From Escherichia coli (GTDB taxonomy: Bacteria > Pseudomonadota > Gammaproteobacteria > Enterobacterales > Enterobacteriaceae): 64,000 bases of DNA. The number at the start of each line of letters is the position of its first letter. Positions within the stretch are counted from its first letter, which is position 1. The translations under genes and the position numbers were made by a program. This document shows, in pieces, positions 14,245 to 39,676 of the stretch. The notes under the pieces were generated by a model that was not told where the DNA came from, made no database searches, and saw only the letters and a list, made by a program, of their open reading frames with translations. The stretch lies in assembly GCF_041886205.1 (NCBI RefSeq), contig NZ_CP169029.1; one strand, written 5' to 3'.

Positions 14245-15498
14245 ATGTCAGGATCCAACACTGCAATCAGCCGTCGTCGTTTACTGCAAGGCGCGGGTGC
14301 CATGTGGCTATTGAGCGTAAGTCAGGTCAGTCTGGCTGCGGTCAGCCAGGTCGTGGCGGTGCGCGTCTGGCCTGCGTCCAGCTACACCCGCGTGACGGTA
14401 GAATCAAATCGTCAGCTGAAATATAAGCAGTTCGCGTTGAGTAACCCGGAACGCGTGGTGGTGGATATCGAAGATGTAAACCTGAACTCGGTACTCAAGG
14501 GGATGGCGGCACAAATTCGTGCAGACGACCCGTTCATCAAGTCGGCGCGCGTCGGGCAATTTGACCCGCAAACCGTACGGATGGTTTTTGAATTAAAGCA
14601 AAACGTAAAACCGCAGCTGTTTGCCCTTGCGCCGGTCGCCGGGTTTAAAGAGCGTCTGGTGATGGACCTCTATCCGGCCAATGCACAGGATATGCAGGAC
14701 CCGCTGCTGGCGCTGCTGGAGGATTACAACAAAGGCGACCTCGAAAAGCAGGTGCCGCCAGCGCAAAGTGGTCCACAACCAGGTAAAGCAGGGCGCGATC
14801 GTCCGATTGTCATTATGCTTGACCCTGGCCACGGTGGCGAAGACTCCGGTGCGGTGGGGAAATACAAAACGCGCGAAAAAGACGTGGTATTGCAAATAGC
14901 TCGCCGTCTGCGCTCTCTGATCGAGAAAGAGGGCAATATGAAGGTGTACATGACGCGCAATGAAGACATCTTCATTCCGTTGCAAGTGCGCGTAGCAAAA
15001 GCCCAGAAACAGCGTGCTGACCTGTTTGTCTCTATCCATGCCGACGCCTTTACCAGTCGTCAGCCGAGCGGTTCCTCTGTGTTTGCGCTCTCAACCAAAG
15101 GTGCAACCAGTACTGCGGCAAAATATCTGGCACAAACCCAGAACGCCTCGGACTTGATTGGTGGCGTGAGCAAAAGCGGTGACCGCTATGTCGACCACAC
15201 CATGTTCGATATGGTGCAGTCGCTGACCATTGCTGACAGCCTTAAGTTTGGTAAAGCGGTACTGAATAAGCTCGGTAAAATCAACAAGCTGCATAAAAAT
15301 CAGGTTGAACAGGCCGGGTTTGCCGTACTAAAGGCACCAGATATTCCCTCCATTCTGGTCGAAACGGCGTTTATCAGTAACGTTGAGGAAGAGCGTAAAC
15401 TGAAAACGGCGACTTTCCAGCAGGAAGTTGCGGAGTCTATTCTTGCGGGAATTAAAGCGTATTTTGCCGATGGGGCGACGCTGGCGAGAAGGGGATGA
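14245..15498 (+). CDS. amiC: N-acetylmuramoyl-L-alanine amidase AmiC (417 aa, Tat signal)
   Basis: Internal ATG at 14245 (RBS gggagagg) gives [24 protein letters not shown]..., a twin-arginine signal; amidase_3 family; divergent from argA as in E. coli. Confidence 0.93.
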
Positions 15499-15507
15499 TG
15501 TTTTTAA

Positions 15508-15540
15508 TTTATTCAATGAATTTATGTTTCATTGAATAAA
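15508..15540. repeat. perfect 13-bp AT-rich inverted repeat (tttattcaatgaa / ttcattgaataaa, 7-nt loop) 10 bp after the amiC stop
   Basis: Read directly from sequence; lies at the left edge of the accessory island. Confidence 0.5.
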
Positions 15541-15689
15541 TATTATTTACATAAATGTTGAACGATGGTTTTGTGACTGCTGTCGAATATTTGAATATCG
15601 GCTTAAAAAATAAGCCTGTCATCTCTTTTATTAAGCACAATTCCGTGTAAGGTATACGCATTAGTTAATTATCTTGTAACTGTTAAATC

Positions 15690-15744
15690 AGGCAAGGCAA
15701 TGTTTGAAGTAATTATTACTTCTGACATGCCTTGCCTTTTTTTT
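15690..15744 (+). terminator. leader stem-loop plus U8 tract upstream of the antiterminator gene; candidate conditional (RAT-associated) terminator
   Basis: Outer stem aggcaaggca (15690-15699) pairs with tgccttgcct (15728-15737); inner palindrome gaagtaat-t-attacttc (15706-15722); followed by 8 T (15737-15744); ends 12 nt before RBS gggag and ATG 15757. Confidence 0.6.
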
Positions 15745-15756
15745 GGGAGCCATGGA

Positions 15757-16581
15757 ATGATCATCGAAAAAGTCATGAACAATAATTGTGTACAGGCATC
15801 GGTGAACGGACAGGAGGTTATCATTTCTGGGCCTGGCGTTGGTTACAATAAAAAATATGGTATGTCGGTCCCTGAGCATCCTGCAAACCGGATTTTTTAT
15901 GTCAGAAATGAGCAAAAAAATAAACTCTACAAATTGATTGAGCATGTGGGTATTGAGTATATTTTTGTTGCCGAAAAGATAGTGCATTATGCGGAGAGTA
16001 ATCTCGAAAAAAAACTCAATCCATCGCTACTACTGATTCTTGCTGATCACATTTCGAATGCAATATCCCGAGTCGTCTCAGGCATACAAATTAATAATGT
16101 TTTCCTTGAGGAAATCAAAGCGTTGTACAAAGCAGAGTATGCAATAAGTCGTGATGCATTAACAATCATTAATGAGCAATTTAGCGTTCAACTACCGGAT
16201 GATGAGATTGGTTTTATAGCATTGCATATTTTAAATAATTATGAAAATTCAGTTGATTATGAATCAGTAAGGATCATTGAGCTGTCTCAAAAAATCACGG
16301 AGCTTATTGAAGTTGTTTATAACAGAAGGGTGGACAGAAGTTCATTTAACTACTCCAGATTTATGATGCACCTTAAATATTTTTCTAGTCGTGTGTTATG
16401 TAATGAAAAAATAAAACAGAAAAATATTGGTGATATCTATGAGCAGTTTCTTGAAAAAGATTTTCAGTTACAACGTGCCATTCATGAAATTGAAAGATAT
16501 CTGTACGCAACTTTTAAATATGATTTGATTCTGGAAGAGAAACTATATCTTTCTATTCGCATCAAAGTATTAATGGACTAA
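15757..16581 (+). CDS. BglG/LicT-family transcriptional antiterminator (CAT RNA-binding domain + PRD domains), ~274 aa
   Basis: N-terminus MIIEKVMNNNCVQASVNGQEVIISGPGVGYNKK is the typical CAT-domain start; ATG 15757 is preferred over the track start 15700 because of RBS gggag and because 15700 lies inside the leader hairpin. Confidence 0.85.
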   Translation: MIIEKVMNNNCVQASVNGQEVIISGPGVGYNKKYGMSVPEHPANRIFYVRNEQKNKLYKLIEHVGIEYIFVAEKIVHYAESNLEKKLNPSLLLILADHISNAISRVVSGIQINNVFLEEIKALYKAEYAISRDALTIINEQFSVQLPDDEIGFIALHILNNYENSVDYESVRIIELSQKITELIEVVYNRRVDRSSFNYSRFMMHLKYFSSRVLCNEKIKQKNIGDIYEQFLEKDFQLQRAIHEIERYLYATFKYDLILEEKLYLSIRIKVLMD

Positions 16582-16612
16582 TTATACATAACATTTTCAT
16601 GAGATAACCAGT

Positions 16613-18193
16613 ATGAAACAAAAGAAAGCCTGGAGTTTTTTTCAGAGCCTGGGGAAGGCATTTATGTATCCCATCGCTCTGTTAAGTGTATGTGGTATGA
16701 TGTTAGGGCTGGGAAGTGGTTTAGCCAGCGATGATATGGGAAAATTCATTCCAGTGTTGGCTATTCCGTTAATTAAAACCATACTTGATTTTATTGTTAG
16801 CCTTGGTTTGTTTGCCTTCGTTAATTTACCTGTATTGTTTGCGATAGCTATACCTTTGGGATTATTAAAAGAGAAAGATGATAAAGCCTATGGCGCTTTT
16901 TCTGGCTTAATTGGCTTTATGGCGATGCATCTTGGAACGAACTTTTATCTTAAACAGCACGACTTATTGGTAGCTGCTGACCAAATGTCGACACATGGGC
17001 AAACCATCATACTCGGGATCCAGTCCTACAATACCAGCGTGTTGGGTGGGATTGTGGCAGGGTTATTAGTCGCCAGCATGTATAAAAAGATCGTTAACTT
17101 ACGTATTCCTGAATCATTAGGGTTTTATAGTGGCCCACGCCTTGTGCCTATCATTACACTGATTGTGATGAGTGGATTTGGTCTGTTCATTCCTTTTATC
17201 TGGCCGCCATTTTTCAATCTTTTCATGCTCATTGGTCACTGGATTTCAACTTCCGGTCCTGTTGGTTATTTCTTCTATGCTGTTGCCGAACGCGTGACGA
17301 TACCTTTTGGCTTAAATCACTTGGTGACATCAGTTTTCCGCTTTACCCCAATCGGCGGATCGGCAGTGATTGGCGGTGAAGAGTATTACGGCACCCTGAA
17401 CATGTTTATGGCATACGTCAAAGAGAATGCGGTCATTCCGCTGGATTTGGCGGGGAAAATGGAGCAGGGCAAACTGATGATTCAGTATGGTCTGGCTGGA
17501 GCCGCGCTGGCGATGTATCGCACTGCTCATGCTCAAAACAGAAGGGCTATCAAAGCATTGCTGATTTCCGGTGTGCTCACGGTAATTATTGGCGGCGTCA
17601 GCGAGCCGATTGAATTTCTGTTCTTATTTGTCAGCCCGCTGTTGTTTGTCTTCCATGCCTTTATGAATGGATTGGCTAACATGGTTCTGCCATATATGGG
17701 CGTGAAGATGGGCTTTACTGGCGATCTGATTCAATTTATTAGCTTTGGTGTCTTACGTGGCACAAGAACGGGATGGCCATTAGCGGTATGTGTTGAAGTG
17801 GCTTATTTCTTCATTTATTACTTTGTGTTCCGTTGGACCATTCTCAAATTTAACCTGATGACTGTAGGCCGTGAAGAGTCCAGTCCTGTCACGCTGAACG
17901 CTCACGAAGAAACTGCAATAGCTAACATCCCAGTTCATGATAAATCAGAGTTGCAGGCAGCGGAGCAAATGGTTAAGGCTCTGGGTGGTAAAGAAAATAT
18001 TAAATCACTGGATAATTGTGTAACTCGTTTGCGTTTAACTATCGCGGATATGGGATTGATAGATGAGGCTGCAATAAAAAGGGCCGGAGGAATTGCGGTT
18101 GTGAAACTTGATCAAAATACCTTACAAGTCATTATCGGTACAAAAGTCATCGCCCTACGTCGGGATATGGATAATTACATGGGGATATGTTGA
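16613..18193 (+). CDS. PTS system glucose-family EIICB component (MalX/PtsG-like), 526 aa, no EIIA domain
   Basis: Multi-span membrane domain followed by C-terminal EIIB with the cysteine motif NCVTRLRLTIADMG; N-terminus MKQKKAWSFFQSLGKAFMYPIALL resembles PtsG/MalX. Confidence 0.9.
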   Translation: MKQKKAWSFFQSLGKAFMYPIALLSVCGMMLGLGSGLASDDMGKFIPVLAIPLIKTILDFIVSLGLFAFVNLPVLFAIAIPLGLLKEKDDKAYGAFSGLIGFMAMHLGTNFYLKQHDLLVAADQMSTHGQTIILGIQSYNTSVLGGIVAGLLVASMYKKIVNLRIPESLGFYSGPRLVPIITLIVMSGFGLFIPFIWPPFFNLFMLIGHWISTSGPVGYFFYAVAERVTIPFGLNHLVTSVFRFTPIGGSAVIGGEEYYGTLNMFMAYVKENAVIPLDLAGKMEQGKLMIQYGLAGAALAMYRTAHAQNRRAIKALLISGVLTVIIGGVSEPIEFLFLFVSPLLFVFHAFMNGLANMVLPYMGVKMGFTGDLIQFISFGVLRGTRTGWPLAVCVEVAYFFIYYFVFRWTILKFNLMTVGREESSPVTLNAHEETAIANIPVHDKSELQAAEQMVKALGGKENIKSLDNCVTRLRLTIADMGLIDEAAIKRAGGIAVVKLDQNTLQVIIGTKVIALRRDMDNYMGIC

Positions 18194-19401
18194 TGGATAT
18201 TTTTAATACCTCAATTTCTCGTAAAGGAACATATTGCACACAATGGGACTTTTGTGAAGACAGATTTGGTGTAAAAGATGTATTACCATTCTCTATTTCA
18301 GATATGGATCTTCCGATACCGGAAGCTATCATCAGAACATTAAAAAAACGTCTGGAACACCCGATTTTAGGGTACAGTCGTTGGCAGCATGATGACTATC
18401 TGAATTCGATAGTCAATTGGTATCATCAACAATATAAAACAGAGATTCAACCAGAATGGATCACCTATAGCCCAAGCGTGATGTATTCAATATCTAAGGC
18501 AATAGAAATATTGACATTGAATGGAGATAATATTCTCATTTTCACGCCTGTTTATAACGCATTTTTTGATGTGATTAAGCATAATGGTCGAAACATGCTA
18601 ACAACCTCTTTGATGAAAGAAAATGGGAGAGGCTACGTTATCAACTGGCAAGACTTTGAGCTTAAAATTAAAAGCGCGAAGATGGTGTTATTATGTAATC
18701 CTCATAACCCGACAGGAACGGTCTGGTCGGAAGACGATCTTCACAGAATCGCAGCATGCTGTGCAAGGCATAATATTTGGTTATGTTCAGATGAAATACA
18801 TAGTGATTTTGTTTTTAATCATAGTTTCACGTCAGCGCTAACAATAAAAGATGACAAAGTGGTGGTGTTTAATTCGATTTCGAAAACATTTAATGTTCCT
18901 GCGCTAACCGGATCATATATGATTTCAACTGACGATAATTTTAATCATAAGTTCAGAACGATATCGAGGTATCGCGATTTCGTAAACTCCCCATCAGTAC
19001 TGAATGTAATTGCGACCATTGTTGCCTATAATGAATGTGAAGAATGGTTAAAGTCGTTAAAGGTACATATTGCCTCTAACATTCAATTTACTTTGCAGTA
19101 TTTAAATGAAAATATTCCGGAATTGATCGTATGGCCAGCTGAGGGCTGCTATTTTTCGTGGGTTGATTGCTCGGCCCTTGGTTATCCCTTTGATAAATTT
19201 TACCGTCGATTAATTAACGAAGGGAGAGTAGGTATTATGGCGGGGCATGTTTATGGTACTGAAGGAGAGGGCTATCTGCGTCTTAATCTGGCCTGCAGTC
19301 GAGAAAAATTATATATGGGGCTTGCGCGCCTTGCGAGTGTAATTAAAAATATTAATCAGGAAAAAGAAAATGAACAATACGGATCTTATCCATCTTATTA
19401 A
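18187..19401 (+). CDS. PLP-dependent aminotransferase class I/II fold protein, MalY/PatB-like cystathionine beta-lyase (C-S lyase), 404 aa
   Basis: N-terminal RKGTYCTQWDF...FGVKDVLPFSISDMDLP and the SISKTFN lysine motif are typical of MalY/PatB; start overlaps the PTS stop. Confidence 0.85.
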   Translation: MLMDIFNTSISRKGTYCTQWDFCEDRFGVKDVLPFSISDMDLPIPEAIIRTLKKRLEHPILGYSRWQHDDYLNSIVNWYHQQYKTEIQPEWITYSPSVMYSISKAIEILTLNGDNILIFTPVYNAFFDVIKHNGRNMLTTSLMKENGRGYVINWQDFELKIKSAKMVLLCNPHNPTGTVWSEDDLHRIAACCARHNIWLCSDEIHSDFVFNHSFTSALTIKDDKVVVFNSISKTFNVPALTGSYMISTDDNFNHKFRTISRYRDFVNSPSVLNVIATIVAYNECEEWLKSLKVHIASNIQFTLQYLNENIPELIVWPAEGCYFSWVDCSALGYPFDKFYRRLINEGRVGIMAGHVYGTEGEGYLRLNLACSREKLYMGLARLASVIKNINQEKENEQYGSYPSY

Positions 19402-19966
19402 ACGTTTTATGCGTAACGAACATAAAGCAGTAGAAGAGGTTATTGATTCCCCCCTTTCGGAAGTCGCGAATTTAATTAAAATATTACAATCTTGCCAGGG
19501 AAAAGTTGTTTTTATTGGTGTTGGGAAATCTGGCATTATTGCCAGAAAACTTGCTGCAACATTTGCCAGCACCGGAACTCCCTCGTTTTTTGTTCACGGT
19601 ACGGAAGCGGTACACGGCGACCTTGGGATGGTGGCGAAAGACGATGTTGTTATTCTTATTTCAAACAGTGGTGAGACGGCGGAAATCCTGGCGACACTGC
19701 CTAGTTTGAAAAAAATGGGTAATTATTTGATCTCTTTTACCCGCAGTCATCACTCATCGCTTGCGATAAGTTGTGATTTATCTGTTGAAATCCCCGTCAA
19801 AAGTGAGGCGGATAATTTAGGTTTAGCACCGTCATGCTCGTCTACTGTTGTTCTGGTTGTTGGTGATGCGGTGGCGCTTGCACTCTCTGAATTGAAAAAA
19901 TTTACTCGTGCTGATTTCGGCTTATATCATCCAGGAGGTGCACTCGGCATTAAAGCAAATTCATAA
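19370..19966 (+). CDS. single SIS-domain sugar-phosphate isomerase, KpsF/GutQ-like but lacking CBS domains (198 aa)
   Basis: VVFIGVGKSGIIARKLAATFASTGTPSFFVHGTEAVHGDLGMV...ILISNSGET matches the arabinose-5-phosphate isomerase SIS domain; overlaps the preceding gene by about 30 nt. Confidence 0.8.
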   Translation: MNNTDLIHLIKRFMRNEHKAVEEVIDSPLSEVANLIKILQSCQGKVVFIGVGKSGIIARKLAATFASTGTPSFFVHGTEAVHGDLGMVAKDDVVILISNSGETAEILATLPSLKKMGNYLISFTRSHHSSLAISCDLSVEIPVKSEADNLGLAPSCSSTVVLVVGDAVALALSELKKFTRADFGLYHPGGALGIKANS

Positions 19967-20037
19967 TTTCAAAGTATAAATACAGTAACCGGTCACGCCA
20001 TCTTTTGGGGTGGCGTTCATTGAAGTGAGTGTCAGCT

Positions 20038-20985
20038 ATGAAAAATGTTCTGGTCACCGTCCCCAACTTTTCAGCACGCTGTGTTTCCGCCAGCAAGTTG
20101 CTAAGAGAGAATAATTTTAATCTTATTATTAAGAATAATGTGGAGCATCTGCTTAAATCAGAATCCACTGCATTACGAGAATCTATTTGCGCGGTCATCG
20201 CCGGAAAAGATTGTTATCAGGCGGACACGCTATCATTGCTGCCTGGTGTGAAAATAATATCAAGATTCGGGACGGGGATAGATAATATTGATCTTCGTGC
20301 AGCACAACAATCCGGTATTGTAGTCAATAATGCGGTTGGGATTAATTCAAATGCTGTCGCGGAATTTATCATTGGACTTATCTTCGCGAGCATGAGAAAT
20401 ATTCCAGGCAGCTATCATGCGATGCAAAATGGCTACTGGGGTGAGTCGCATGGCTATGAATTACAAGGCAAACGGATTGGCATGGTTGGCTACGGCAATA
20501 TAGGTAAAACCCTGGCAAAAAGGTTATCCGGTTTTGATGTTGAGCTTTTAGCTTATGACAAACAACCCGATTATCAGGTTGCTGACAAAGTTGGAGTTCA
20601 GTTTGTATCAATTGAAGATATCTTTATGCAGTCGCATGTCATCATTGTTCTTTTGCCTTTTTCTCCTGAGCTGGAGAACTTCATTAGTCATAAATATTTG
20701 TCGATGATGCGCAATGGTGCTCTAATCATCAATGCCGCAAGGGGAAAGTTGCTGGATGAGGGCGCTTTACTACAGGTGATTGAAGAACGAAATGTGTTTG
20801 CGGCGCTGGATGTGTTTAGCTCTGAACCGTTGGCGCAATTTAGCCCACTGCTACATGCCAAAAATATCATTACAACGCCGCATATTGCGGCCGCCACCGT
20901 TGAGTCATACCAGCAAACCGGTACACACGTTGCCCAGTCGATAATTGATTACTTCGCAGGAAGGGAGATAAAAAACGTGTTGTGA
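20038..20985 (+). CDS. D-isomer-specific 2-hydroxyacid dehydrogenase family NAD-binding protein (~315 aa)
   Basis: Rossmann motif GKRIGMVGYGNIGKTLAKRL and the family pattern ...LLPFSPELENFIS...; ATG 20038 preferred over the GTG at 20029 (uncertain). Confidence 0.8.
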   Translation: MKNVLVTVPNFSARCVSASKLLRENNFNLIIKNNVEHLLKSESTALRESICAVIAGKDCYQADTLSLLPGVKIISRFGTGIDNIDLRAAQQSGIVVNNAVGINSNAVAEFIIGLIFASMRNIPGSYHAMQNGYWGESHGYELQGKRIGMVGYGNIGKTLAKRLSGFDVELLAYDKQPDYQVADKVGVQFVSIEDIFMQSHVIIVLLPFSPELENFISHKYLSMMRNGALIINAARGKLLDEGALLQVIEERNVFAALDVFSSEPLAQFSPLLHAKNIITTPHIAAATVESYQQTGTHVAQSIIDYFAGREIKNVL

Positions 20986-21011
20986 GTTCAGCGAACGAAG
21001 TTTTTAAATAC

Positions 21012-21047
21012 AAAAAAACCGCAATTTGTGGAACACATTGCGGTTTA
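21012..21047 (-). terminator. rho-independent terminator of the tRNA-fMet operon (8-bp GC-containing stem followed by U7 on the minus strand)
   Basis: Stem accgcaat (21018-21025) pairs with attgcggt (21037-21044); the plus-strand A7 at 21012-21018 reads as U7 after the hairpin on the minus strand; 17 bp from the metV 3' end. Confidence 0.7.
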
Positions 21048-21063
21048 TCAGCATTCTAAGTAT

Positions 21064-21140
<77 letters not shown>

Positions 21141-21172
21141 TCACCGTACTGCTTTATTTCATCAAATTTGAT

Positions 21173-21249
<77 letters not shown>

Positions 21250-21282
21250 TCACCGTACTGCTTTACTTCATCAAATTTTAAT

Positions 21283-21359
<77 letters not shown>

Positions 21360-21365
21360 TCCGTG

Positions 21366-21400
21366 GATGCGCACTATACTCCGCTCGCGTTTTCATGCAA
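21366..21400 (-). promoter_or_regulatory. candidate sigma70 promoter of the metZWV operon (TTGCAT-N16-TATAGT with GC-rich discriminator)
   Basis: Minus-strand reading ggTTGCATgaaaacgcgagcggagTATAGTgcgcatcc immediately upstream of the first tRNA 5' end; the GCGC discriminator is typical of stringently controlled stable-RNA promoters. Confidence 0.55.
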
Positions 21401-21567
21401 CCTTTTTTTTACCCCGATCACGGATTTGGCATGATTTTGAACAAAAACAAATCAGTAAAGCCTATTTTTTGTGCAAAATTTGCGTCAGGGAGAGGCTGCT
21501 CATTTCATTAAACGCGGCGGTTTGTTATCTTCGTTGCGCCTTATTTTTTAACCTGAAGAAGAGAACA

Positions 21568-33337: not shown

Positions 33338-33469
33338 AAAATGCGAAGAATAGATTGATGCGATGAATATTTATTCAAAGGTTATTCGTATCACAGTGGA
33401 GATGGCTTTAGTAGCGACGTTTATGCCGTACTTCACATTTTCAGTTTCTGATTATTGAGGAAAGCTGCA

Positions 33470-34969
33470 ATGTCCGAAACATTTTTGCAAATGAAGCATA
33501 TCACCAAACGCTTTCCTGGAGTGTTGGCGCTTAATGACGTGCAATTTTCCCTACGCCGGGGCGAGGTTCATGCATTATTAGGTGAAAATGGTGCAGGAAA
33601 ATCTACCTTAATGAAAATTTTGTCGGGGGTTTATCAACCTGATGAAGGCGAAATAATTTTTGAAGATAAACCAGTCTCATTTTCTGATCCGTTAAGTGCG
33701 CAAAACGTAGGTATTACTATTATTCACCAGGAATTTAATTTATTTCCCGAGCTTACAGTAGAAGAAAATATTTTTATCGGCAGGGAGTTTTGTAAAAAAA
33801 ATCGCTGGCGTCTGGATGAAAAACAGCAACGCCAGGCGACGATTGAAATTTTGCAAAAATTAAATTTGGCGATCAAACCAGATACTCTGGTTGCCGACCT
33901 TACGGTAGCTCAGCAGCAGATGGTAGAAATTGCCAAGGCCATTTCAGTTAACGCCAGGATTCTCATTATGGATGAACCTACTGCGGCGTTAACAGAAACT
34001 GAAATTGAAAGCTTATTTCGCGTCACCCGGTTATTGAAAGAGCAGGGGACCGGCATTGTTTATATCTCCCACCGTCTGGAAGAGTTGGCGCTAATTGCCG
34101 ACCGTGCGACTGTAATGCGTGATGGTCAGTACATCAGCACGGTGGATTATGAGTGCGTAAAAATCAGCGATCTGATTGCCATGATGGTTGGTCGCGATTT
34201 AGGGAATATCTATCCCCGCCGCGAGGCCTTGCAGCAGCGGATTCCGGTTCTGGAGGTAAACGGACTGACGCGCAAAGGCGTCCTGAACGATATTAATTTT
34301 ACGCTTTATCGTGGCGAGATCCTCGGCTTTGCCGGACTGATGGGCGCGGGGCGTACTGAACTTGCGCGTGCGATTTTTGGTGCGGATTCTATTGACAGCG
34401 GAACGCTAAAATTAAATGGTAAGGAAACCGTTATTAAAGATATTTCGGATGCTATTCAGCAGGGAATTAGTTACCTGACGGAAGACCGCAAAAAAGAAGG
34501 GCTGGCGCTGAATTTATCTGTTGAACGAAATATTATGTTAGGAAACTACCCTGAATATTCCGATCGTTTTGGGAATGTCGATTCGCGTCGTTGCCAACAA
34601 ACCAGTGAGGAACAGGTAAAAGCGTTAAGGATTAAAACGCCAAATCTTGAACAGGCGGCATTAAATCTAAGTGGAGGAAACCAGCAGAAAATTATAATTG
34701 CACGTTGGGTGTGTAAAGATACTGATATTTTAATCTTCGATGAACCCACTCGCGGCATTGATGTTGGCGCCAAACTGGAAATCTATGAGTTAATGAATCG
34801 CCTGGTGGCAAAAGGGAAATCAATCATCATGATCTCCTCTGAATTGCCTGAGGTGTTAGGAATGTGCGACCGTATTTTAGTGATGCGCAGTGGTCGAATT
34901 ACCGGCGAACTTAGCGCAAAAGAAGCGACACAAGAAAAAATTATGCAATACGCGACGTTAGAGGATTAA
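33470..34969 (+). CDS. sugar ABC transporter ATP-binding protein with two fused ABC domains (CUT2 family, RbsA/MglA-like), ~499 aa
   Basis: ATG 33470 preferred over TTG 33455 (RBS gaggaaag); Walker A GENGAGKST, signature LSGGNQQK in the second half, and total length indicate a duplicated ABC ATPase. Confidence 0.9.
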   Translation: MSETFLQMKHITKRFPGVLALNDVQFSLRRGEVHALLGENGAGKSTLMKILSGVYQPDEGEIIFEDKPVSFSDPLSAQNVGITIIHQEFNLFPELTVEENIFIGREFCKKNRWRLDEKQQRQATIEILQKLNLAIKPDTLVADLTVAQQQMVEIAKAISVNARILIMDEPTAALTETEIESLFRVTRLLKEQGTGIVYISHRLEELALIADRATVMRDGQYISTVDYECVKISDLIAMMVGRDLGNIYPRREALQQRIPVLEVNGLTRKGVLNDINFTLYRGEILGFAGLMGAGRTELARAIFGADSIDSGTLKLNGKETVIKDISDAIQQGISYLTEDRKKEGLALNLSVERNIMLGNYPEYSDRFGNVDSRRCQQTSEEQVKALRIKTPNLEQAALNLSGGNQQKIIIARWVCKDTDILIFDEPTRGIDVGAKLEIYELMNRLVAKGKSIIMISSELPEVLGMCDRILVMRSGRITGELSAKEATQEKIMQYATLED

Positions 34970-34972
34970 ATT

Positions 34973-35956
34973 ATGACTATCTCTGTAACCTCTCCAGACA
35001 GTAATAATAAGAAAATAAAGATAAATAAAGAACTTTTGATGCGTCTTGCGCCTCTTTTTAGCTTAATTATATTAGTGCTGTTTTTTAGTTTCAGCTCTCC
35101 CTTTTTCTTTAATACCGAAAATATCATGACGATTGCTCTGCAAACGTCGGTTATCGGCATTATGGCCATTGGGGTAACTTTCGTCATTATTACCGCGGGC
35201 ATCGATCTTTCATTGGGCTCCGTGGTGGCTTTTTCTGGTGTCGCCGTGGGGATTTGCGCCACACTGGGCCTGCCGCTGCCAGTGTGTATTATTGCCGGTG
35301 TTTTAGCCGGTGGAATGTGCGGCTATGTGAATGGTTTGTTGGTCACTAAAATGACCATTCCACCATTTATCGCTACCTTGGGCCTGATGATGTCCGTCAG
35401 AGGTATCAATATGGTGATGACCGACGGGCGCGCCATCTATTTTGCCGATTACCCGATGTTCAAAACGCTCGCTCAGGGACGCTTATTTGATGTGCTGCCT
35501 TATCCTGTTTTCTACCTTGTCATTGTAGCGCTTGTCGGCGCTTACATCCTGAAGAAAACCGTCATTGGTCGCTATGTCTATGCCGTAGGCAGTAATGAAG
35601 TTGCTGCTCATCTTTCTGGTATTAAAGTTCAGCGCGTGAAAATTTTCGTCTATGCCTTCTGTGGATTATTAACGGGGATTGCAGGTGTCATTCTGGCATC
35701 TCGTCTCAACTCCGGACAACCGACGGTAGGTGTGGGTTATGAACTGGAAGCTATTGCCGCGGTAGTGATTGGCGGAACCAGCTTAATGGGCGGTATTGGC
35801 ACTATTGGCGGCACAATCATTGGCGCTTTCATTATGAGTGTACTGAAAAATGGCCTCAATTTAATGGGCGTCTCCCAGTTCTGGCAAATGGTCGCGATGG
35901 GCGTCGTTGTGGTCGCTGCCGTTTACCTCGATACATTACGCAAAAAGATTCGTTGA
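34973..35956 (+). CDS. sugar ABC transporter permease (RbsC/AraH-like, 327 aa)
   Basis: Polytopic membrane protein; ATG 4 nt after the ATPase stop with RBS gagga. Confidence 0.88.
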   Translation: MTISVTSPDSNNKKIKINKELLMRLAPLFSLIILVLFFSFSSPFFFNTENIMTIALQTSVIGIMAIGVTFVIITAGIDLSLGSVVAFSGVAVGICATLGLPLPVCIIAGVLAGGMCGYVNGLLVTKMTIPPFIATLGLMMSVRGINMVMTDGRAIYFADYPMFKTLAQGRLFDVLPYPVFYLVIVALVGAYILKKTVIGRYVYAVGSNEVAAHLSGIKVQRVKIFVYAFCGLLTGIAGVILASRLNSGQPTVGVGYELEAIAAVVIGGTSLMGGIGTIGGTIIGAFIMSVLKNGLNLMGVSQFWQMVAMGVVVVAAVYLDTLRKKIR

Positions 35957-36029
35957 CTTAGGCTCCCTGTTTTATCGGGAAACAACTGCCCTGACGTTAA
36001 GGGTGATTCACTCAGAACGGAGTACAACA

Positions 36030-36980
36030 ATGAAAACCAGGCATTTTATCTATGCGTTATCTCTGCTGGCTTGCGTAAGTTCCAGCGCACTGGCGAAGGA
36101 TTTAAATCTTCCGGTTGTTAGTAAAGGTTTCCAACATGAATTCTGGCAAACCGTAAAAATGGGGACTGAAGCTGCGGCTAAAGAGTTGGGGGATAAAACC
36201 AGCTATGTTGGCCCGGCTGATGAAACGCAAATAGCCGAGCAAATTCAGTTAGTCGAAAATGCGATGGCGCAGAAACCGAATGGCTTGCTTCTGGCAGCCC
36301 TCGACGCGAATGCGCTCGCCCCACTGGTAGAAACGGCAAATTCACGCGGTATCAAAGTGGTGACCTTTGATTCAGGCATCAATTCAGACATTCCGGTGAG
36401 TTTTGTCGCCACCAATAACCGTAAAGCAGGTGCTCAGGCAGCTGATGCCTTAGCCTCGCAGGTAAATAATAAAGGGAAAGTTGGGATTATCGCGCACGTT
36501 GCAGGAACATCTTCCGCTATTGAACGCTCGGAAGGCTTCATGGAGCGTATGAAAGAAAAATATCCTGACATTAAAGTCTTACCCGTTCAGTACAGCGATG
36601 GTGACCCGCAAAAAGCGATGGATAAAACTATCGATATGATTCAGGCCAATCCCGATCTTGCTGGGATCTATGGCACCAATGAAGGTTCAACGCTCGGGGT
36701 GGCGAATGCCATTGATAGCCAGAATCTGAAAGGTAAGGTGAAGGTCATTGGTTTTGATAGTACGGAAGCGATTATTAACTTCCTGAAGAACGGCGTCATT
36801 CAGGGCTTTGTTGTTCAGGATGCATACCAGATTGGCTATCAAGGGATCAAAACGTTGAACGCGGCCCTTTCGGGGCAAGCCGTTGAAAAAGAGATCGATA
36901 TTCCCGTGAAATTTGTTAATGCCGAGAATATTAACACGCCAGAAATCGACAAACTCCTGCACCCATTCGGTAAGAAATAA
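36030..36980 (+). CDS. periplasmic sugar-binding protein (RbsB-like, type I PBP fold), ~316 aa
   Basis: Internal ATG at 36030 gives MKTRHFIYALSLLACVSSSALA, a signal peptide; the track ORF upstream extension overlaps the permease and lacks signal-peptide character. Confidence 0.88.
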   Translation: MKTRHFIYALSLLACVSSSALAKDLNLPVVSKGFQHEFWQTVKMGTEAAAKELGDKTSYVGPADETQIAEQIQLVENAMAQKPNGLLLAALDANALAPLVETANSRGIKVVTFDSGINSDIPVSFVATNNRKAGAQAADALASQVNNKGKVGIIAHVAGTSSAIERSEGFMERMKEKYPDIKVLPVQYSDGDPQKAMDKTIDMIQANPDLAGIYGTNEGSTLGVANAIDSQNLKGKVKVIGFDSTEAIINFLKNGVIQGFVVQDAYQIGYQGIKTLNAALSGQAVEKEIDIPVKFVNAENINTPEIDKLLHPFGKK

Positions 36981-37032
36981 AAAATTGGGGATGAATTTTC
37001 ATCCCCGTTATCTCCAGCGTCAGGGAGGCTTT

Positions 37033-38613
37033 ATGCACAACGGTTATTTTCTCGGTGTCGATGTCGGATCGGCCAGTGTCAGGGCAGGCGTTTACAGTGC
37101 CAGTGGCCACAGGCTGGCATTCGCTACTGCGCCCGTCTCCCAGTTTCGCCCTGGCGGCGAGCGTGTCGAACAGTCTTCGGCAGAGATCTGGCAACAAGTT
37201 TGTAAAACGGTGAAAGAGGCGACAGCTTTGGCAGGCATCCCCATTTCCGCAATTCGCTCACTGGGTTTTGACGCTACCTGCTCGCTGGTTGTTCTTGATG
37301 AACAAGGCCAGGGTTTAGCGGTTTCGTCCGGTGGATCTGCGAATCACGACATTATTATGTGGATGGATCATCGTGCAACTGTCGAGACGGCGCAGATTAA
37401 CGCAATGAAGGATCCCGCATTGCGCTACGTTGGCGGCGAAGTGAGCGTCGAGATGGAGTTACCAAAGTTACGTTGGTTGAAGACGCATCTACCGCAAACC
37501 TGGCAGGCCGCTCATCGCTTTTTCGATCTGGCGGATTTTCTGGTCTGGAAAGCAACAGGGCGAGACGTCGCGGGATTATGCACGCTAACGTGTAAATGGA
37601 ATTATCTAGCTCATGAGCAACGCTTTAGCCATAGCTTACTGGAATCGATAGACCTGACCGATATGCTTGAAAGAATTCCTGCCAACATTCTTCCGCCTGG
37701 CGCTGCCGTGGGAACGTTAACCGCCACAGCTGCTGAAGAGTTAGGATTAACGACTAATGTTATCGTGGCCAGTGGCTTGATTGATGCCCATGCCGGTGGC
37801 GTGGCGCTGGCTGGCGCTCACCCATCAGGAACGCTGGCATTGATAAGCGGAACGTCGAACTGCCATATGCTGTGTAGTGAAAAAGAGATATTCACCCCTG
37901 GCGTCTGGGGGCCATACTGGTCGGCCATGTTGCCAAATTACTGGCTAACCGAAGGCGGGCAAAGCGCCGCAGGGGCGCTGGTGGAGTGGACGCTTCAGGA
38001 GTCAGGGGCAAGCGCAAATCTTTTTCACAAGGCGCAGCAACGCGGATGTCATCCGATTCAACTGATTAATGAATGGGTAGCAGCCCTTGAAGCTAACGAG
38101 TCAGAACCCACACGAAATTTACATGTGCTTGCCGATCATCACGGCAACCGTTCGCCACGAGCGCGGCCCGATGCCAGAGGCAGTGTTTATGGCTTAACAC
38201 TGGAGCGTGGTGAAAATCAGCTCGCGCGACTTTATCTTGCGACTTTACAGGCAATAGCCTTTGGCACCAGACATATTATTGAAACTCTGCGGGAAAATGG
38301 GCATACCATTACCCGATTAACATTATGTGGTGGTGCAACGCACAACCCTTTATGGCTACGCGAATATGCAGACGTGACAGGTTGCGATATCCACCTGATG
38401 CAAGAAGAAGATGCCGTTACGTTGGGCGCAGCAATTAGCGGCGCTGTTGCCAGCGGAGCATGGGGGGATTTTACATCTGCGTGTAAAGCAATGGTTGAAG
38501 CCGGAGAGATTATTCAGGTAAATCCACAACGCCGTGAATTTTTAGAGCGTAAATACCGGGTTTACCTGACGCTTTGGGAGCAACAACAGGCGGTTAACCA
38601 ACTGATGCAATAA
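37033..38613 (+). CDS. FGGY-family carbohydrate kinase, pentulose-kinase-like subgroup (~526 aa)
   Basis: Internal ATG at 37033 (RBS cagggagg) gives MHNGYFLGVDVGSASVRAGVY, the FGGY N-terminal motif; GTSNCHM motif mid-protein; the track ORF start at 36913 overlaps the binding-protein gene. Confidence 0.87.
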   Translation: MHNGYFLGVDVGSASVRAGVYSASGHRLAFATAPVSQFRPGGERVEQSSAEIWQQVCKTVKEATALAGIPISAIRSLGFDATCSLVVLDEQGQGLAVSSGGSANHDIIMWMDHRATVETAQINAMKDPALRYVGGEVSVEMELPKLRWLKTHLPQTWQAAHRFFDLADFLVWKATGRDVAGLCTLTCKWNYLAHEQRFSHSLLESIDLTDMLERIPANILPPGAAVGTLTATAAEELGLTTNVIVASGLIDAHAGGVALAGAHPSGTLALISGTSNCHMLCSEKEIFTPGVWGPYWSAMLPNYWLTEGGQSAAGALVEWTLQESGASANLFHKAQQRGCHPIQLINEWVAALEANESEPTRNLHVLADHHGNRSPRARPDARGSVYGLTLERGENQLARLYLATLQAIAFGTRHIIETLRENGHTITRLTLCGGATHNPLWLREYADVTGCDIHLMQEEDAVTLGAAISGAVASGAWGDFTSACKAMVEAGEIIQVNPQRREFLERKYRVYLTLWEQQQAVNQLMQ

Positions 38614-38677
38614 GACAAAAGTTGAAAATACTTTTATGATTGTGATTTGACGTCTGGATGTTAACTGGGAAATACCT

Positions 38678-39676
38678 ATGGCTAAAACAGTAGAGCAGAT
38701 AGCCAGCGACCTGAATTTATCGGTTACGACCGTGCGACTGGTGCTAAATGGAAAAGCGGAACAATATCGAATCAGCGTCAAAACCCAAACGCGTATCAAT
38801 GAATATGTTGAACGCTATGGTTATATCATTAATCATTCCGCTCGCAGCCTTAAGCTTAACAAAACTGATACATTAGGGTTGATTGTTCCCAACATATCCA
38901 ACGTCTTTTTTGCTACGCTGGCAGAAAAACTCGAACAACGCTGTCGACGTTCCGGATATCAACTTACAATCAGTTGCACTTATGATGATGTTGACTATGA
39001 AAATAAATTGACGAAAGCATTTATCGCACGAAATGTAGATGGTCTTTTTATTGTTCCTTCGACGCTGGAAAATCAGCAGCATCATTTACGCAAAATTCGT
39101 AAGCCCATGGTTTTACTCGATCGTGATTTTAAATATACCGATAACGCATTGGTAGAGAGTAATAATATTTCTGGCGGAGAAAAGCTGACGCAAAATATTC
39201 TTGAGGCCGGGCAGACTCCAGTATGGTTTTTGCTGGGAGATGCCGGTTTGCCGAGTATCAGCGATCGTCTGACAGGTTATTTGAATGCGTTGGCAAAAAA
39301 AGGGATTACCCATCGCGATTGGGTGCGGGAAGGTCCGGTAAATACTCCGGAAGGCGGCTATGTCATTATGGAAAAACTCATTGAAGAGCAGGGATGTCCG
39401 CAGGCATTTATCGCCTCGTCTTTGCCTGTGCTTGAAGGCGCTGTCCGCGCGATTCGCGACCGTCTTGGCGCTGTACCGCCAGAAATCAATATTGGCACTT
39501 TCGATGAACATCCTATGCTGGGATTTCTCGCCAACAATGTCTGGTCAATGCAGCAGGATGAAAATGCCTGGGCAGAAAAAGCGTTCGAAATGATGTTAAG
39601 CGCGATCGAAGAAAGACCAGTCAAAAAAACAGTTAAAGTAGAAATGAAATTAATTAAGCGCATAAGAAAAAAATAA
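38678..39676 (+). CDS. LacI/GalR-family transcriptional regulator (332 aa)
   Basis: N-terminal HTH region followed by a periplasmic-binding-protein-like sugar-binding fold (LGLIVPNISNVFFATLAEKLE). Confidence 0.88.
   Translation: MAKTVEQIASDLNLSVTTVRLVLNGKAEQYRISVKTQTRINEYVERYGYIINHSARSLKLNKTDTLGLIVPNISNVFFATLAEKLEQRCRRSGYQLTISCTYDDVDYENKLTKAFIARNVDGLFIVPSTLENQQHHLRKIRKPMVLLDRDFKYTDNALVESNNISGGEKLTQNILEAGQTPVWFLLGDAGLPSISDRLTGYLNALAKKGITHRDWVREGPVNTPEGGYVIMEKLIEEQGCPQAFIASSLPVLEGAVRAIRDRLGAVPPEINIGTFDEHPMLGFLANNVWSMQQDENAWAEKAFEMMLSAIEERPVKKTVKVEMKLIKRIRKK

Follow-up and report, generated by a model that had tools for sequence, protein, structure and literature searches.

A horizontally acquired EIICB permease of Escherichia coli lacking a linked EIIA and probably served by EIIA-Glc of the host

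A low-GC island within a 64-kb stretch of Escherichia coli DNA (the whole of this stretch is referred to as the window) carries an acquired operon with an intact PTS permease of the EIICB type. The reading favoured here, with fairly high but incomplete confidence, is that this permease borrows its EIIA, most likely EIIA-Glc (Crr), and that the borrowed protein would serve both transport and antiterminator control of the operon. The two parts of this proposal carry different weight: a need for a borrowed EIIA is well supported by sequence comparison, and Crr is the probable donor. EIICB permeases that share Crr are a common arrangement and belong to textbook biology, and the permease is an ordinary representative of this known type, with an unsurprising architecture. 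What appears to be new is that the same cassette also occurs in Firmicutes, with a linked EIIA gene there but none in the enterobacterial loci.

As claimed in the initial annotation, the open reading frame at 16613-18193 (+ strand) encodes a protein of 526 aa ending in an EIIB domain, with the motif NCVTRLRLTIADMG at residues 468-481. Translation, Pfam and NCBIfam assign it to the MalX-like subfamily of the glucose family, the best NCBIfam models all being of 'IIBC' types. The domain order is EIIC followed by EIIB. The EIIC membrane domain spans residues 14-353 (16652-17671, + strand; Pfam PF02378, E=1e-72) and carries GVSEPIEF at residue 331, a sugar-binding motif of the form GxxE(P)xEF. The EIIB domain extends over residues ~445-523 (17945-18181, + strand), as defined by PDB matches together with Pfam PTS_EIIB (PF00367), whose own match comprises residues 452-484 (E=1e-14); the PDB matches are to PtsG IIB and include chain 1o2f_B of the IIA-Glc:IIB-Glc complex. 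The phospho-accepting Cys469 (codon 18017-18019) lies in the loop LDNCVTRLRL, which fits the pattern C(I/V)TRLR and is conserved in the alignment with MalX, PtsG and all orthologues. The permease is an intact EIICB under strong purifying selection (dN/dS of 0.046 at a dS of 0.34 relative to the CFT073 allele), and the MalX type of its EIIC points to a substrate resembling glucose or to a glucoside.

The protein had been described as 'EIICB only', with PTS_EIIA_1 domain annotation named as the way to check it and with no EIIA gene noticed in the island, and both descriptions held. PTS_EIIA_1 (PF00358) had no Pfam match in the permease at E<=0.01, and an EIIA domain was absent from all five island ORFs in Pfam and NCBIfam searches. 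With Crr as query, tblastn and phmmer searches for EIIA returned noise only, as did an EIIA_1 profile of 7 sequences run against the whole 64-kb window with --max on 768 six-frame segments (best E=1.5-3.3, 3 bits; positive control 190 bits). Because the permease C-terminus lies 3 residues past the EIIB alignment to MalX/PtsG, an EIIA of ~150 aa cannot fit there, and the intergenic gaps of the island (31 nt separating the antiterminator and PTS genes, 71 nt separating the SIS gene from the dehydrogenase gene) are too short to leave room for an EIIA gene. Two concealed locations were also excluded: the permease linker at residues 354-445 aligns with the C-terminal TM helices and linker of MalX/PtsG, and a pseudogene remnant downstream of the SIS gene would have had only the 71-nt gap before the dehydrogenase gene to occupy.

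The description of the surrounding segment as an island is borne out by the K-12 junction alignment and by its low GC content. The island measures ~5.56 kb (15501-21062, + strand) and runs from the amiC stop codon to the 3' end of the tRNA-Met gene metV; divergence from K-12 starts right past that stop codon, homology resumes at the metV 3' end, and K-12 has a 73-bp intergenic region in the equivalent place. GC is ~0.29-0.49 within the island versus ~0.53 in the flanks. Its right-hand anchor consists of three tRNA-fMet genes (metV, metW and metZ; 21064-21359, - strand), identified by ARAGORN, Rfam and K-12 annotation. Five genes are present, encoding a BglG/LicT-type antiterminator, the EIICB, a MalY/PatB lyase, a CBS-less SIS isomerase and a 2-hydroxyacid dehydrogenase. 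The island occurs in 1683 of 5426 complete E. coli genomes (about 31%) at a coverage of at least 80%. Its counterpart is the amiC-proximal module c3405-c3410 of PAI-CFT073-metV, of which it is a 'short' form without the T6SS cluster, and its genes make up a horizontally acquired operon. In some strains the antiterminator gene is frameshifted or the lyase gene carries an IS1 insertion, so the module is not universally needed. The AT-rich island is also a likely target of H-NS.

Downstream of the permease gene lies the gene for a PLP-dependent C-S lyase of the MalY/PatB family (18193-19401, + strand; 402 aa; NCBIfam TIGR04350, 369 bits against a cutoff of 340), 37% identical to K-12 MalY. Its start codon overlaps the PTS stop codon (TGATG), which implies translational coupling. 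The lyase alleles of the window and CFT073 are unequal in length. The next gene encodes a single-SIS-domain sugar-phosphate isomerase of 198 aa without CBS domains (19370-19966, + strand; Pfam SIS), covered only by the N-terminal half of the KdsD/KpsF models. Arabinose-5-phosphate isomerase activity was reportedly found for the SIS protein by Mosberg et al. in 2011, an activity suggesting the pentose-phosphate pool as the outlet of the pathway. The last gene (20038-20985, + strand; Pfam 2-Hacid_dh_C) encodes a 2-hydroxyacid dehydrogenase specific for D-isomers, which carries the annotation phosphoglycerate dehydrogenase. Only the cassettes of Escherichia, Citrobacter and Atlantibacter have this extra gene, and the 71-nt spacer on its 5' side contains a small hairpin.

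The view that the EIIA is borrowed, as the initial annotation had proposed, is strengthened by the distribution of the cassette across phyla. A four-gene core of antiterminator, EIICB, MalY-like lyase and SIS isomerase is common to the E. coli island and gut Firmicutes; literature on malY in C. difficile yielded no information on what the cassette does. The Firmicute PTS proteins of the cassette are 62-71% identical to the island permease, which belongs to an orthologue group at a level of at least 60% identity shared with Clostridia, the next homologues reaching at most 46%. In 6/6 Firmicute-type loci whose flanks could be inspected (C. difficile, Clostridium sp. KNHs214, one MAG and three metagenome loci), a gene for a Crr-like EIIA_1 protein is adjacent to the cassette, versus 0/8 enterobacterial loci. 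Three loci cut by contig ends were left out of this scoring, namely L024 and the two of Enterococcus termitis type (L010 and L019), whose contigs stop 150 bp past the SIS gene. The contig scan by exact-peptide patterns recovers close relatives only (8 loci), and the Firmicute sample comes from look-ups of encoding contigs. The enterobacterial loci probably represent only two acquisition events, one between amiC and metV with the dehydrogenase gene and one beside fruBKA in Enterobacter, so the contrast of 6/6 versus 0/8 has few independent data points. EIIA genes were found neither in the 7-8 kb around each enterobacterial cassette nor in the 50-kb region of CFT073.

The clostridial cassette EIIAs are 33-44% identical to Crr and conserve both catalytic His residues, while the Firmicute cassette EIIAs are 31-69% identical among themselves. 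When relatives of the clostridial cassette EIIA were listed, the 120 closest (at least 45% identity) included no named protein from Escherichia or another enterobacterium; the named ones are from Clostridioides/Clostridium, save one compost-metagenome entry. Nothing thus points to an EIIA transferred along with the cassette to an unlinked site. The presence of an EIIA gene in the Firmicute cassettes and its absence from the enterobacterial copies make a relay through Crr the most likely arrangement in E. coli. The choice of Crr as the most probable donor is based on its near-universal gene (crr is present in 5425/5426 complete E. coli genomes), the MalX/PtsG-like EIIB loop of the permease and the Crr-like nature of the clostridial EIIAs.

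The operon also has its own control system, a PRD antiterminator with a RAT/terminator leader, which did not feature in the initial annotation. The BglG/LicT-family transcription antiterminator (15757-16581, + strand; 274 aa) consists of CAT, PRD1 and PRD2 domains (Pfam CAT_RBD and PRD); its start at 15757 is the PGAP start of an identical strain, whereas the listed ORF start at 15700 falls inside the terminator. It matches the NCBIfam LicT model over its full length with 230 bits, where the equivalog cut-off is 300, and its PDB matches are LicT, BglG and GlcT, the LicT PRD1-PRD2 alignment covering residues 57-270. Relative to the phosphorylatable LicT histidines 100, 159, 207 and 269, His98, His157 and His205 are kept and the equivalent of His269 is Arg268; this fourth position is Arg in E. 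coli, Citrobacter and Atlantibacter and His in Enterobacter and Firmicute orthologues. The antiterminator has a dN/dS of 0.07 relative to the CFT073 allele.

Upstream of this gene, the RAT (ribonucleic antiterminator) element CTTGTAACTGTTAAATCAGGCAAG (15673-15696, + strand) fits the classical pattern with 0 substitutions, and in its 3' half it runs into the 5' arm of an intrinsic leader terminator (15690-15745, + strand), in which a hairpin at 15690-15737 is followed by U8 at 15738-15745. The terminator fold has an energy of -32.2 kcal/mol (z = -4.7), with 0/200 shuffles equally stable; a simple terminator scan did not pick it up because its stem/loop is long. An Rfam scan of 15300-21500 in evalue mode returned the three tRNAs only and nothing overlapping the leader. 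In 13/14 related loci the strict pattern locates a RAT ahead of the antiterminator or PTS gene, and a relaxed pattern locates one in the remaining locus. The upper stem of the RAT shows a compensatory G:C to A:U change among these loci, and the terminator stems vary among species with complementarity retained. The antiterminator gene is the first of the operon and follows the RAT/terminator, an arrangement that makes it autoregulated as in bgl. No promoter could be assigned, as a simple promoter scan gave fewer promoter-like matches than were found in shuffles; a conserved block, CATCTC...GTGTAAGGTATAC (~15620-15657), may mark the promoter location. A candidate CRP half-site, TGTGActgctgTCGAA (~15573-15588), was set aside, being conserved only within Escherichia and having a poor right half-site fit.

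In the proposed relay, phosphate would pass from PEP through EI and HPr to His90 of EIIA-Glc (Crr), then to Cys469 of the island EIIB and finally to the substrate in EIIC. The LicT/BglG-type antiterminator would allow the operon to be read through the RAT/terminator leader, and when substrate is absent the cognate P~EIIB would phosphorylate PRD1 and keep the antiterminator inactive. Given the conserved leader, the borrowed EIIA should therefore control induction of the operon too, feeding both processes, and uptake of the island substrate would drain the shared P~EIIA-Glc/P~HPr pool. Control of PRD1 by the island EIIB is inferred, as are the effects on cAMP and on the P~EIIA-Glc pool. The earlier expectation that the acquired pathway is coupled to host catabolite repression and inducer exclusion was imprecisely worded: the targets of inducer exclusion are permeases outside the PTS, and what would be expected instead is the drain on the shared pool. 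The leader would offer the more direct route from PTS phosphorylation state to operon expression.

To say that the permease must use Crr would be too strong, since MalX is only 'probably' Crr-dependent and the EIIA domains of BglF and NagE are documented substitutes for Crr in E. coli (PMC6148471). The EIIA might thus come mainly from NagE, BglF or a strain-specific stand-alone protein, in which case a crr mutant would show little phenotype. Cross-talk between glucose-family EIIAs and EIIBs is indeed common; BglF replaces Crr for PtsG and ScrA, and uptake of methyl-alpha-glucoside is lost only in crr man nagE triple mutants (PMC6148471). The diversity of the Firmicute cassette EIIAs also suggests that the EIIB tolerates different partners. 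Such a donor is nevertheless considered unlikely, as Crr is universal and is produced constitutively in abundance while nagE and bglF belong to inducible or cryptic systems, no enterobacterial protein was found that resembles the clostridial cassette EIIA more than Crr does, and neither the 7-8 kb around the enterobacterial cassettes nor the CFT073 region yielded an EIIA. Direct phosphorylation of the EIIB by HPr, which would make an EIIA dispensable, was raised as a formal possibility for the EIIA-less permeases of B. subtilis, but there the EIIA domains of PtsG, GamP and PtsA restored growth on the substrates of those permeases (PMC6148471). A linked EIIA gene in Firmicute cassettes would moreover be pointless if HPr sufficed, and this route is regarded as highly improbable.

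The missing EIIA would be of little consequence if the permease acted mainly as a sensor or regulator in the manner of SacX or MalX/MalY, or if it were silent or cryptic. By K-12 annotation, MalX has no known natural substrate and MalY regulates MalT; the antiterminator frameshift or IS1-disrupted lyase gene of some strains and the probable targeting of the AT-rich island by H-NS point in the same direction. Against this stand the low dN/dS of the PTS gene with its catalytic motifs all intact, and the retention of the four-gene core across phyla with translational coupling. Deletion of c3405-10 was reportedly found by Lloyd et al. in 2009 to lower UPEC fitness in mice, which also argues for a functional system, and a sensory or cryptic role is accordingly judged improbable, somewhat more so than an alternative EIIA donor.

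With Crr as the favoured donor, the host-EIIA requirement of this permease, the PTS of the ExPEC-associated PAI-CFT073-metV module c3405-c3410, can guide the choice of strain background (crr+, or crr nagE bglF mutants) in the search for its substrate, and a borrowed EIIA predicts de-repressed antitermination in a crr mutant. The phylum-level contrast in EIIA linkage provides a testable case of a transferred PTS module joining the phosphorelay of its recipient and hence its cAMP/CRP physiology. A broader and rather doubtful possibility is that antiterminator, EIICB, lyase and SIS isomerase form a mobile catabolic module of gut Firmicutes that shed its EIIA on entering Enterobacterales and was rewired onto Crr. 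If so, uptake and PRD-antiterminator control would be hostage to the P~EIIA-Glc state of the host, and the module would illustrate a natural 'plug-in' modularity of the PTS and explain a UPEC fitness locus. Its substrate could, purely speculatively, be a glycosyl-amino-acid conjugate, for example an S-/O-glycosyl cysteine/serine, suited to the C-S lyase and the CBS-less isomerase.

Among known systems, the closest likeness is to MalX, which has the same C-then-B order, a similar length (530 vs 526 aa), 42% identity end to end, the common LDNC(I/V)TRLRL loop and likewise no EIIA domain; a MalY homologue is encoded downstream of the permease in both the malX malY operon and the island. MalX is the best-matching family, but the scores of 537.7 and 522.1 bits against TIGR02004 and NF007509 fall below the cut-offs of 632.2 and 665, and the permease is therefore not a MalX orthologue. 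The two also differ in control (the LacI-type repressor MalI for MalX, a PRD antiterminator with RAT/terminator for the island permease) and in the SIS isomerase and dehydrogenase genes that accompany only the latter. PtsG is an EIICB with its EIIA in trans, as proposed for the island permease; it is 35% identical overall and 43% identical in EIIB, with the Cys and Arg residues conserved and the IIB chain of 1O2F alignable. PtsG is an established client of Crr and MalX a probable one. Unlike PtsG, a core gene product under Mlc/CRP/SgrS, the island permease is accessory and antiterminator-controlled. Like the island, the PRD antiterminator-controlled PTS operons bglGFB of E. coli and glcT-ptsG and licT of B. 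subtilis have a regulator made of a CAT domain with two PRDs, and their leaders contain a RAT that overlaps an intrinsic terminator. BglF and B. subtilis PtsG, however, possess their own EIIA domain, whereas the island EIIB is expected to control PRD1 via a foreign EIIA; LicT also differs in having His269 where the E. coli/Citrobacter/Atlantibacter antiterminator clade has Arg.

The CFT073 module c3405-c3410 has the identical five-gene set and order beside amiC, with PTS and SIS proteins each 97% identical, and differs in that a T6SS cluster of ~27 kb separates its dehydrogenase gene from metV; no such cluster occurs in the window. Relative to CFT073, dS is unusually high for the antiterminator and PTS genes (0.34-0.37), compared with 0.09 for amiC. 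These genes were described within PAI-CFT073-metV as 'PTS system, maltose/glucose specific' and are kept in 4/4 UPEC genomes examined (PMC2831201). For EIIA sharing itself, the precedent is B. subtilis, whose EIIA-less MalP, TreP, SacP, SacX, NagP and MurP are served by the EIIA of PtsG, GamP or PtsA (PMC6148471). There, sharing within the glucose family was shown by experiment among native genes of one host, whereas for the island permease it apparently arose, or was exploited, when the cassette crossed phyla and lost its linked EIIA.

The permease encoded in the low-GC island between amiC and metV (16613-18193, plus strand) is a clean 526-codon ORF. Domain annotation, which had been proposed as the check for an EIIA domain, assigned to it only PTS_EIIC (residues 14-353, E=1e-72) and PTS_EIIB (residues 452-484, E=1e-14), with no further Pfam domain at E<=0.01, and its top NCBIfam matches are 'IIBC' models throughout. 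All catalytic motifs are intact; the EIIC motif GVSEPIEF lies at residue 331, the phospho-accepting Cys469 lies within LDNCVTRLRL, and the motif cited in the initial annotation occupies residues 468-481. K-12 MalX aligns with the protein from end to end (42% identity, 530 vs 526 aa), and since the permease ends where MalX ends, there is no room for an EIIA domain, which bears out its earlier description as EIICB only. The accompanying claim that the island lacks an EIIA gene also holds: Pfam and NCBIfam scans detected none in any island ORF, tblastn and phmmer searches with E. coli Crr (EIIA-Glc) found none in the whole 64-kb window, and an EIIA_1 profile, built from seven sequences and run with --max over all 768 six-frame segments of the window, returned a top match of only E=3.3 and 3 bits (positive control, 190 bits).

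The window follows the E. coli chromosomal order recC-ptrA-recB-recD, argA, amiC, the island, metV-metW-metZ, mltA and tcdA. Divergence from K-12 starts directly after the amiC stop codon and the match resumes at the metV 3' end, with approximately 5.56 kb (15501-21062; GC 0.29-0.49 vs approximately 0.53 outside) in place of a 73-bp spacer. The island holds five co-directional genes, which are the permease gene and those for a BglG/LicT-type antiterminator with a CAT domain and two PRDs (15757-16581), a MalY/PatB C-S lyase (18193-19401) whose start overlaps the PTS stop (TGATG), a single-SIS isomerase of 198 aa without CBS domains (19370-19966), and, behind a 71-nt gap containing a small hairpin, a 2-hydroxyacid dehydrogenase (20038-20985) that some lineages carry as an add-on. 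Coverage of the island region reaches at least 80% in 1683 of the 5426 complete E. coli genomes. Two ORF-list starts are misleading, namely 15700 (ATG) for the antiterminator, which falls inside the leader terminator (real start 15757), and 21286 (TTG) for mltA, which runs into the oppositely oriented metZ tRNA (annotated start ~21568). A perfect 12-bp inverted repeat (TTATTCAATGAA-N7-TTCATTGAATAA, 15509-15539) marks the left edge right behind the amiC stop and could serve as the amiC terminator or for protein binding; its outer positions are altered in a compensatory way in E. coli E69 (CCATTCAATGAA ... TTAATTGAATGG). Elsewhere in the window (~33455-39676), a five-gene insert between fucI and fucA (sugar ABC transporter ATPase, permease, binding protein, FGGY kinase and LacI-family regulator) occupies the place of K-12 fucP, and no fucP is annotated in that region.

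Homology searching placed the permease in a distinct group of orthologues sharing >=60% identity, comprising members from Escherichia, Atlantibacter, Citrobacter and Enterobacter together with Clostridioides difficile (68%), Enterococcus termitis (71%), Clostridium sp. KNHs214 and several gut metagenome bins, beyond which lie ordinary MalX-family proteins at <=46% identity. When each orthologous locus was scored with phmmer in six frames, using Crr and the island proteins as queries, the four-gene core of antiterminator, EIICB, lyase and SIS isomerase proved to be conserved across phyla. An EIIA_1 gene was linked to the cassette in all six Firmicute-type loci with inspectable flanks: immediately behind the SIS gene in C. 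difficile (L005), divergent and just upstream of the antiterminator in Clostridium sp. KNHs214 (L006), divergent and just upstream in a MAG (L011) and a metagenome locus (L023), within a divergent EIIA-SIS pair in L012, and co-directional upstream in L025 (both metagenome). Enterococcus-type loci were left out of this count, as their contigs stop just past the SIS gene. In contrast, none of the eight enterobacterial loci, which probably represent only two insertions, carries one within 7-8 kb (two E. coli strains, the window and L013; E. whittamii, L018; Atlantibacter hermannii, L008; two Citrobacter, L015 and L017; two Enterobacter, L009 and L016). The two insertion sites are amiC-metV, with the dehydrogenase gene, and beside fruBKA in Enterobacter, without it; this different chromosomal site indicates that the Enterobacter insertion was independent of the other. 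In both Enterobacter loci, the four-gene cassette has an AP-endonuclease gene on one side and the fruA-fruK-fruB operon on the other. The dehydrogenase gene is limited to the Escherichia/Citrobacter/Atlantibacter version, being missing from Enterobacter and every Firmicute locus, and in A. hermannii (L008, 11370-12380) it is split into two ORFs and is likely a pseudogene.

The proposal that the permease must borrow an EIIA is supported by the absence of this domain and by the 6/6 vs 0/8 linkage contrast. As to the donor, the clostridial cassette EIIAs share 33-44% identity with Crr and keep both catalytic histidines, and crr is present in 5425 of 5426 complete E. coli genomes. Of the 120 proteins most similar to the C. 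difficile cassette EIIA, those that carry a name are Clostridioides or Clostridium, except for one compost-metagenome entry, and include no enterobacterial protein; nothing here thus points to an unlinked EIIA transferred together with the cassette. MalX and PtsG share the EIIB active-site loop of the permease, whose EIIB domain also aligns with the IIB chain in the solved structure of the IIA-Glc:IIB-Glc complex (1O2F). Taken together, these sequence comparisons argue firmly that the permease would require an EIIA in trans, and make Crr its probable donor, although the EIIA domains of BglF and NagE can also stand in for Crr (PMC6148471).

The antiterminator gene is preceded by a textbook ribonucleic antiterminator (RAT; CTTGTAACTGTTAAATCAGGCAAG, 15673-15696, plus strand), whose 3' half doubles as the 5' arm of an intrinsic terminator on the same strand (hairpin 15690-15737 plus U8; -32.2 kcal/mol, z=-4.7). 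This pair is present in 14/14 related loci scanned, among which a compensatory exchange of G:C for A:U is seen in the RAT upper stem and the terminator stems vary between species yet remain complementary. In the C. difficile locus (L005, 1177-1600), the antiterminator gene is separated from the PTS gene by four tandem RAT-terminator modules, repeats of ~104 nt in each of which a near-perfect RAT (GGATTGTAACTG...CAGGCAAAACC) precedes a terminator hairpin of its own with a T-run; such a fourfold antitermination checkpoint is unusual. A conserved block upstream of the E. coli RAT (CATCTC...GTGTAAGGTATAC, ~15620-15657) probably holds the promoter. A weak CRP-like site (TGTGActgctgTCGAA, ~15573-15588), also upstream of the RAT, is conserved within Escherichia only and was judged unconvincing as a candidate CRP half-site.

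The antiterminator aligns with LicT across both PRDs, with His98 and His157 (PRD1) and His205 (PRD2) conserved. The position of LicT-His269, the second PRD2 histidine, is Arg268 (16558-16560) in E. coli, E. whittamii, Citrobacter and Atlantibacter, and His in Enterobacter and in every Firmicute orthologue; the Arg-bearing clade is also the one with the extra dehydrogenase gene. The PRD-antiterminator systems BglG/BglF, LicT and GlcT/PtsG provide the model for control of PRD1 by P~EIIB. By analogy, P~EIIB would phosphorylate PRD1 and silence the antiterminator when substrate is absent, and the borrowed EIIA would therefore serve induction control as well as transport. If so, a crr mutant would read through the terminator constitutively yet be unable to take up the substrate. 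The suggested coupling to catabolite repression and inducer exclusion was imprecise, because inducer exclusion acts on non-PTS permeases, the permease itself would compete for P~EIIA-Glc and P~HPr and drain both, and the PRD antiterminator, not CRP as far as shown, governs expression.

In the UPEC strain CFT073, the same five genes adjoin amiC in PAI-CFT073-metV, as in the window, whereas a T6SS cluster of ~27 kb separates them from metV. The PTS and SIS proteins each share 97% identity with those of CFT073, and judged by this identity and by gene order, the island is the c3405-c3410 module. The lyase alleles differ in length (402 vs 391 aa). Between the two strains, dN/dS is 0.046 for the PTS gene (dS=0.34) and 0.07 for the antiterminator gene. 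The island is mosaic relative to CFT073, with dS of 0.34-0.37 across the antiterminator and PTS genes (15757-18193), 0.09-0.13 across the SIS and dehydrogenase genes (19370-20985) and 0.09 in the flanking core gene amiC, which suggests either a pair of long-separated allelic lineages or recombination within the island. Some E. coli strains show decay of the module: LHM10-1 has a frameshifted antiterminator (H5; L001, 3258-4081), and IS1 interrupts the lyase gene in two pigeon isolates (H2, H3). The SIS protein is presumably the 'unique arabinose 5-phosphate isomerase' reported by Mosberg et al. 2011.

Earlier work on UPEC has already covered this locus, terming the c3405-c3410 genes 'PTS system, maltose/glucose specific' and finding them kept in 4/4 UPEC genomes examined (PMC2831201). 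For both E. coli and B. subtilis, EIIA sharing within the glucose family is likewise well established, and MalX is only 'probably' Crr-dependent (PMC6148471). The permease would work like both MalX and PtsG; it scores under both NCBIfam MalX cut-offs and is therefore not a MalX orthologue. What is new here, and was not found in the literature, is that the EIIA gene is cassette-linked in Firmicutes and absent from the cassette in enterics.
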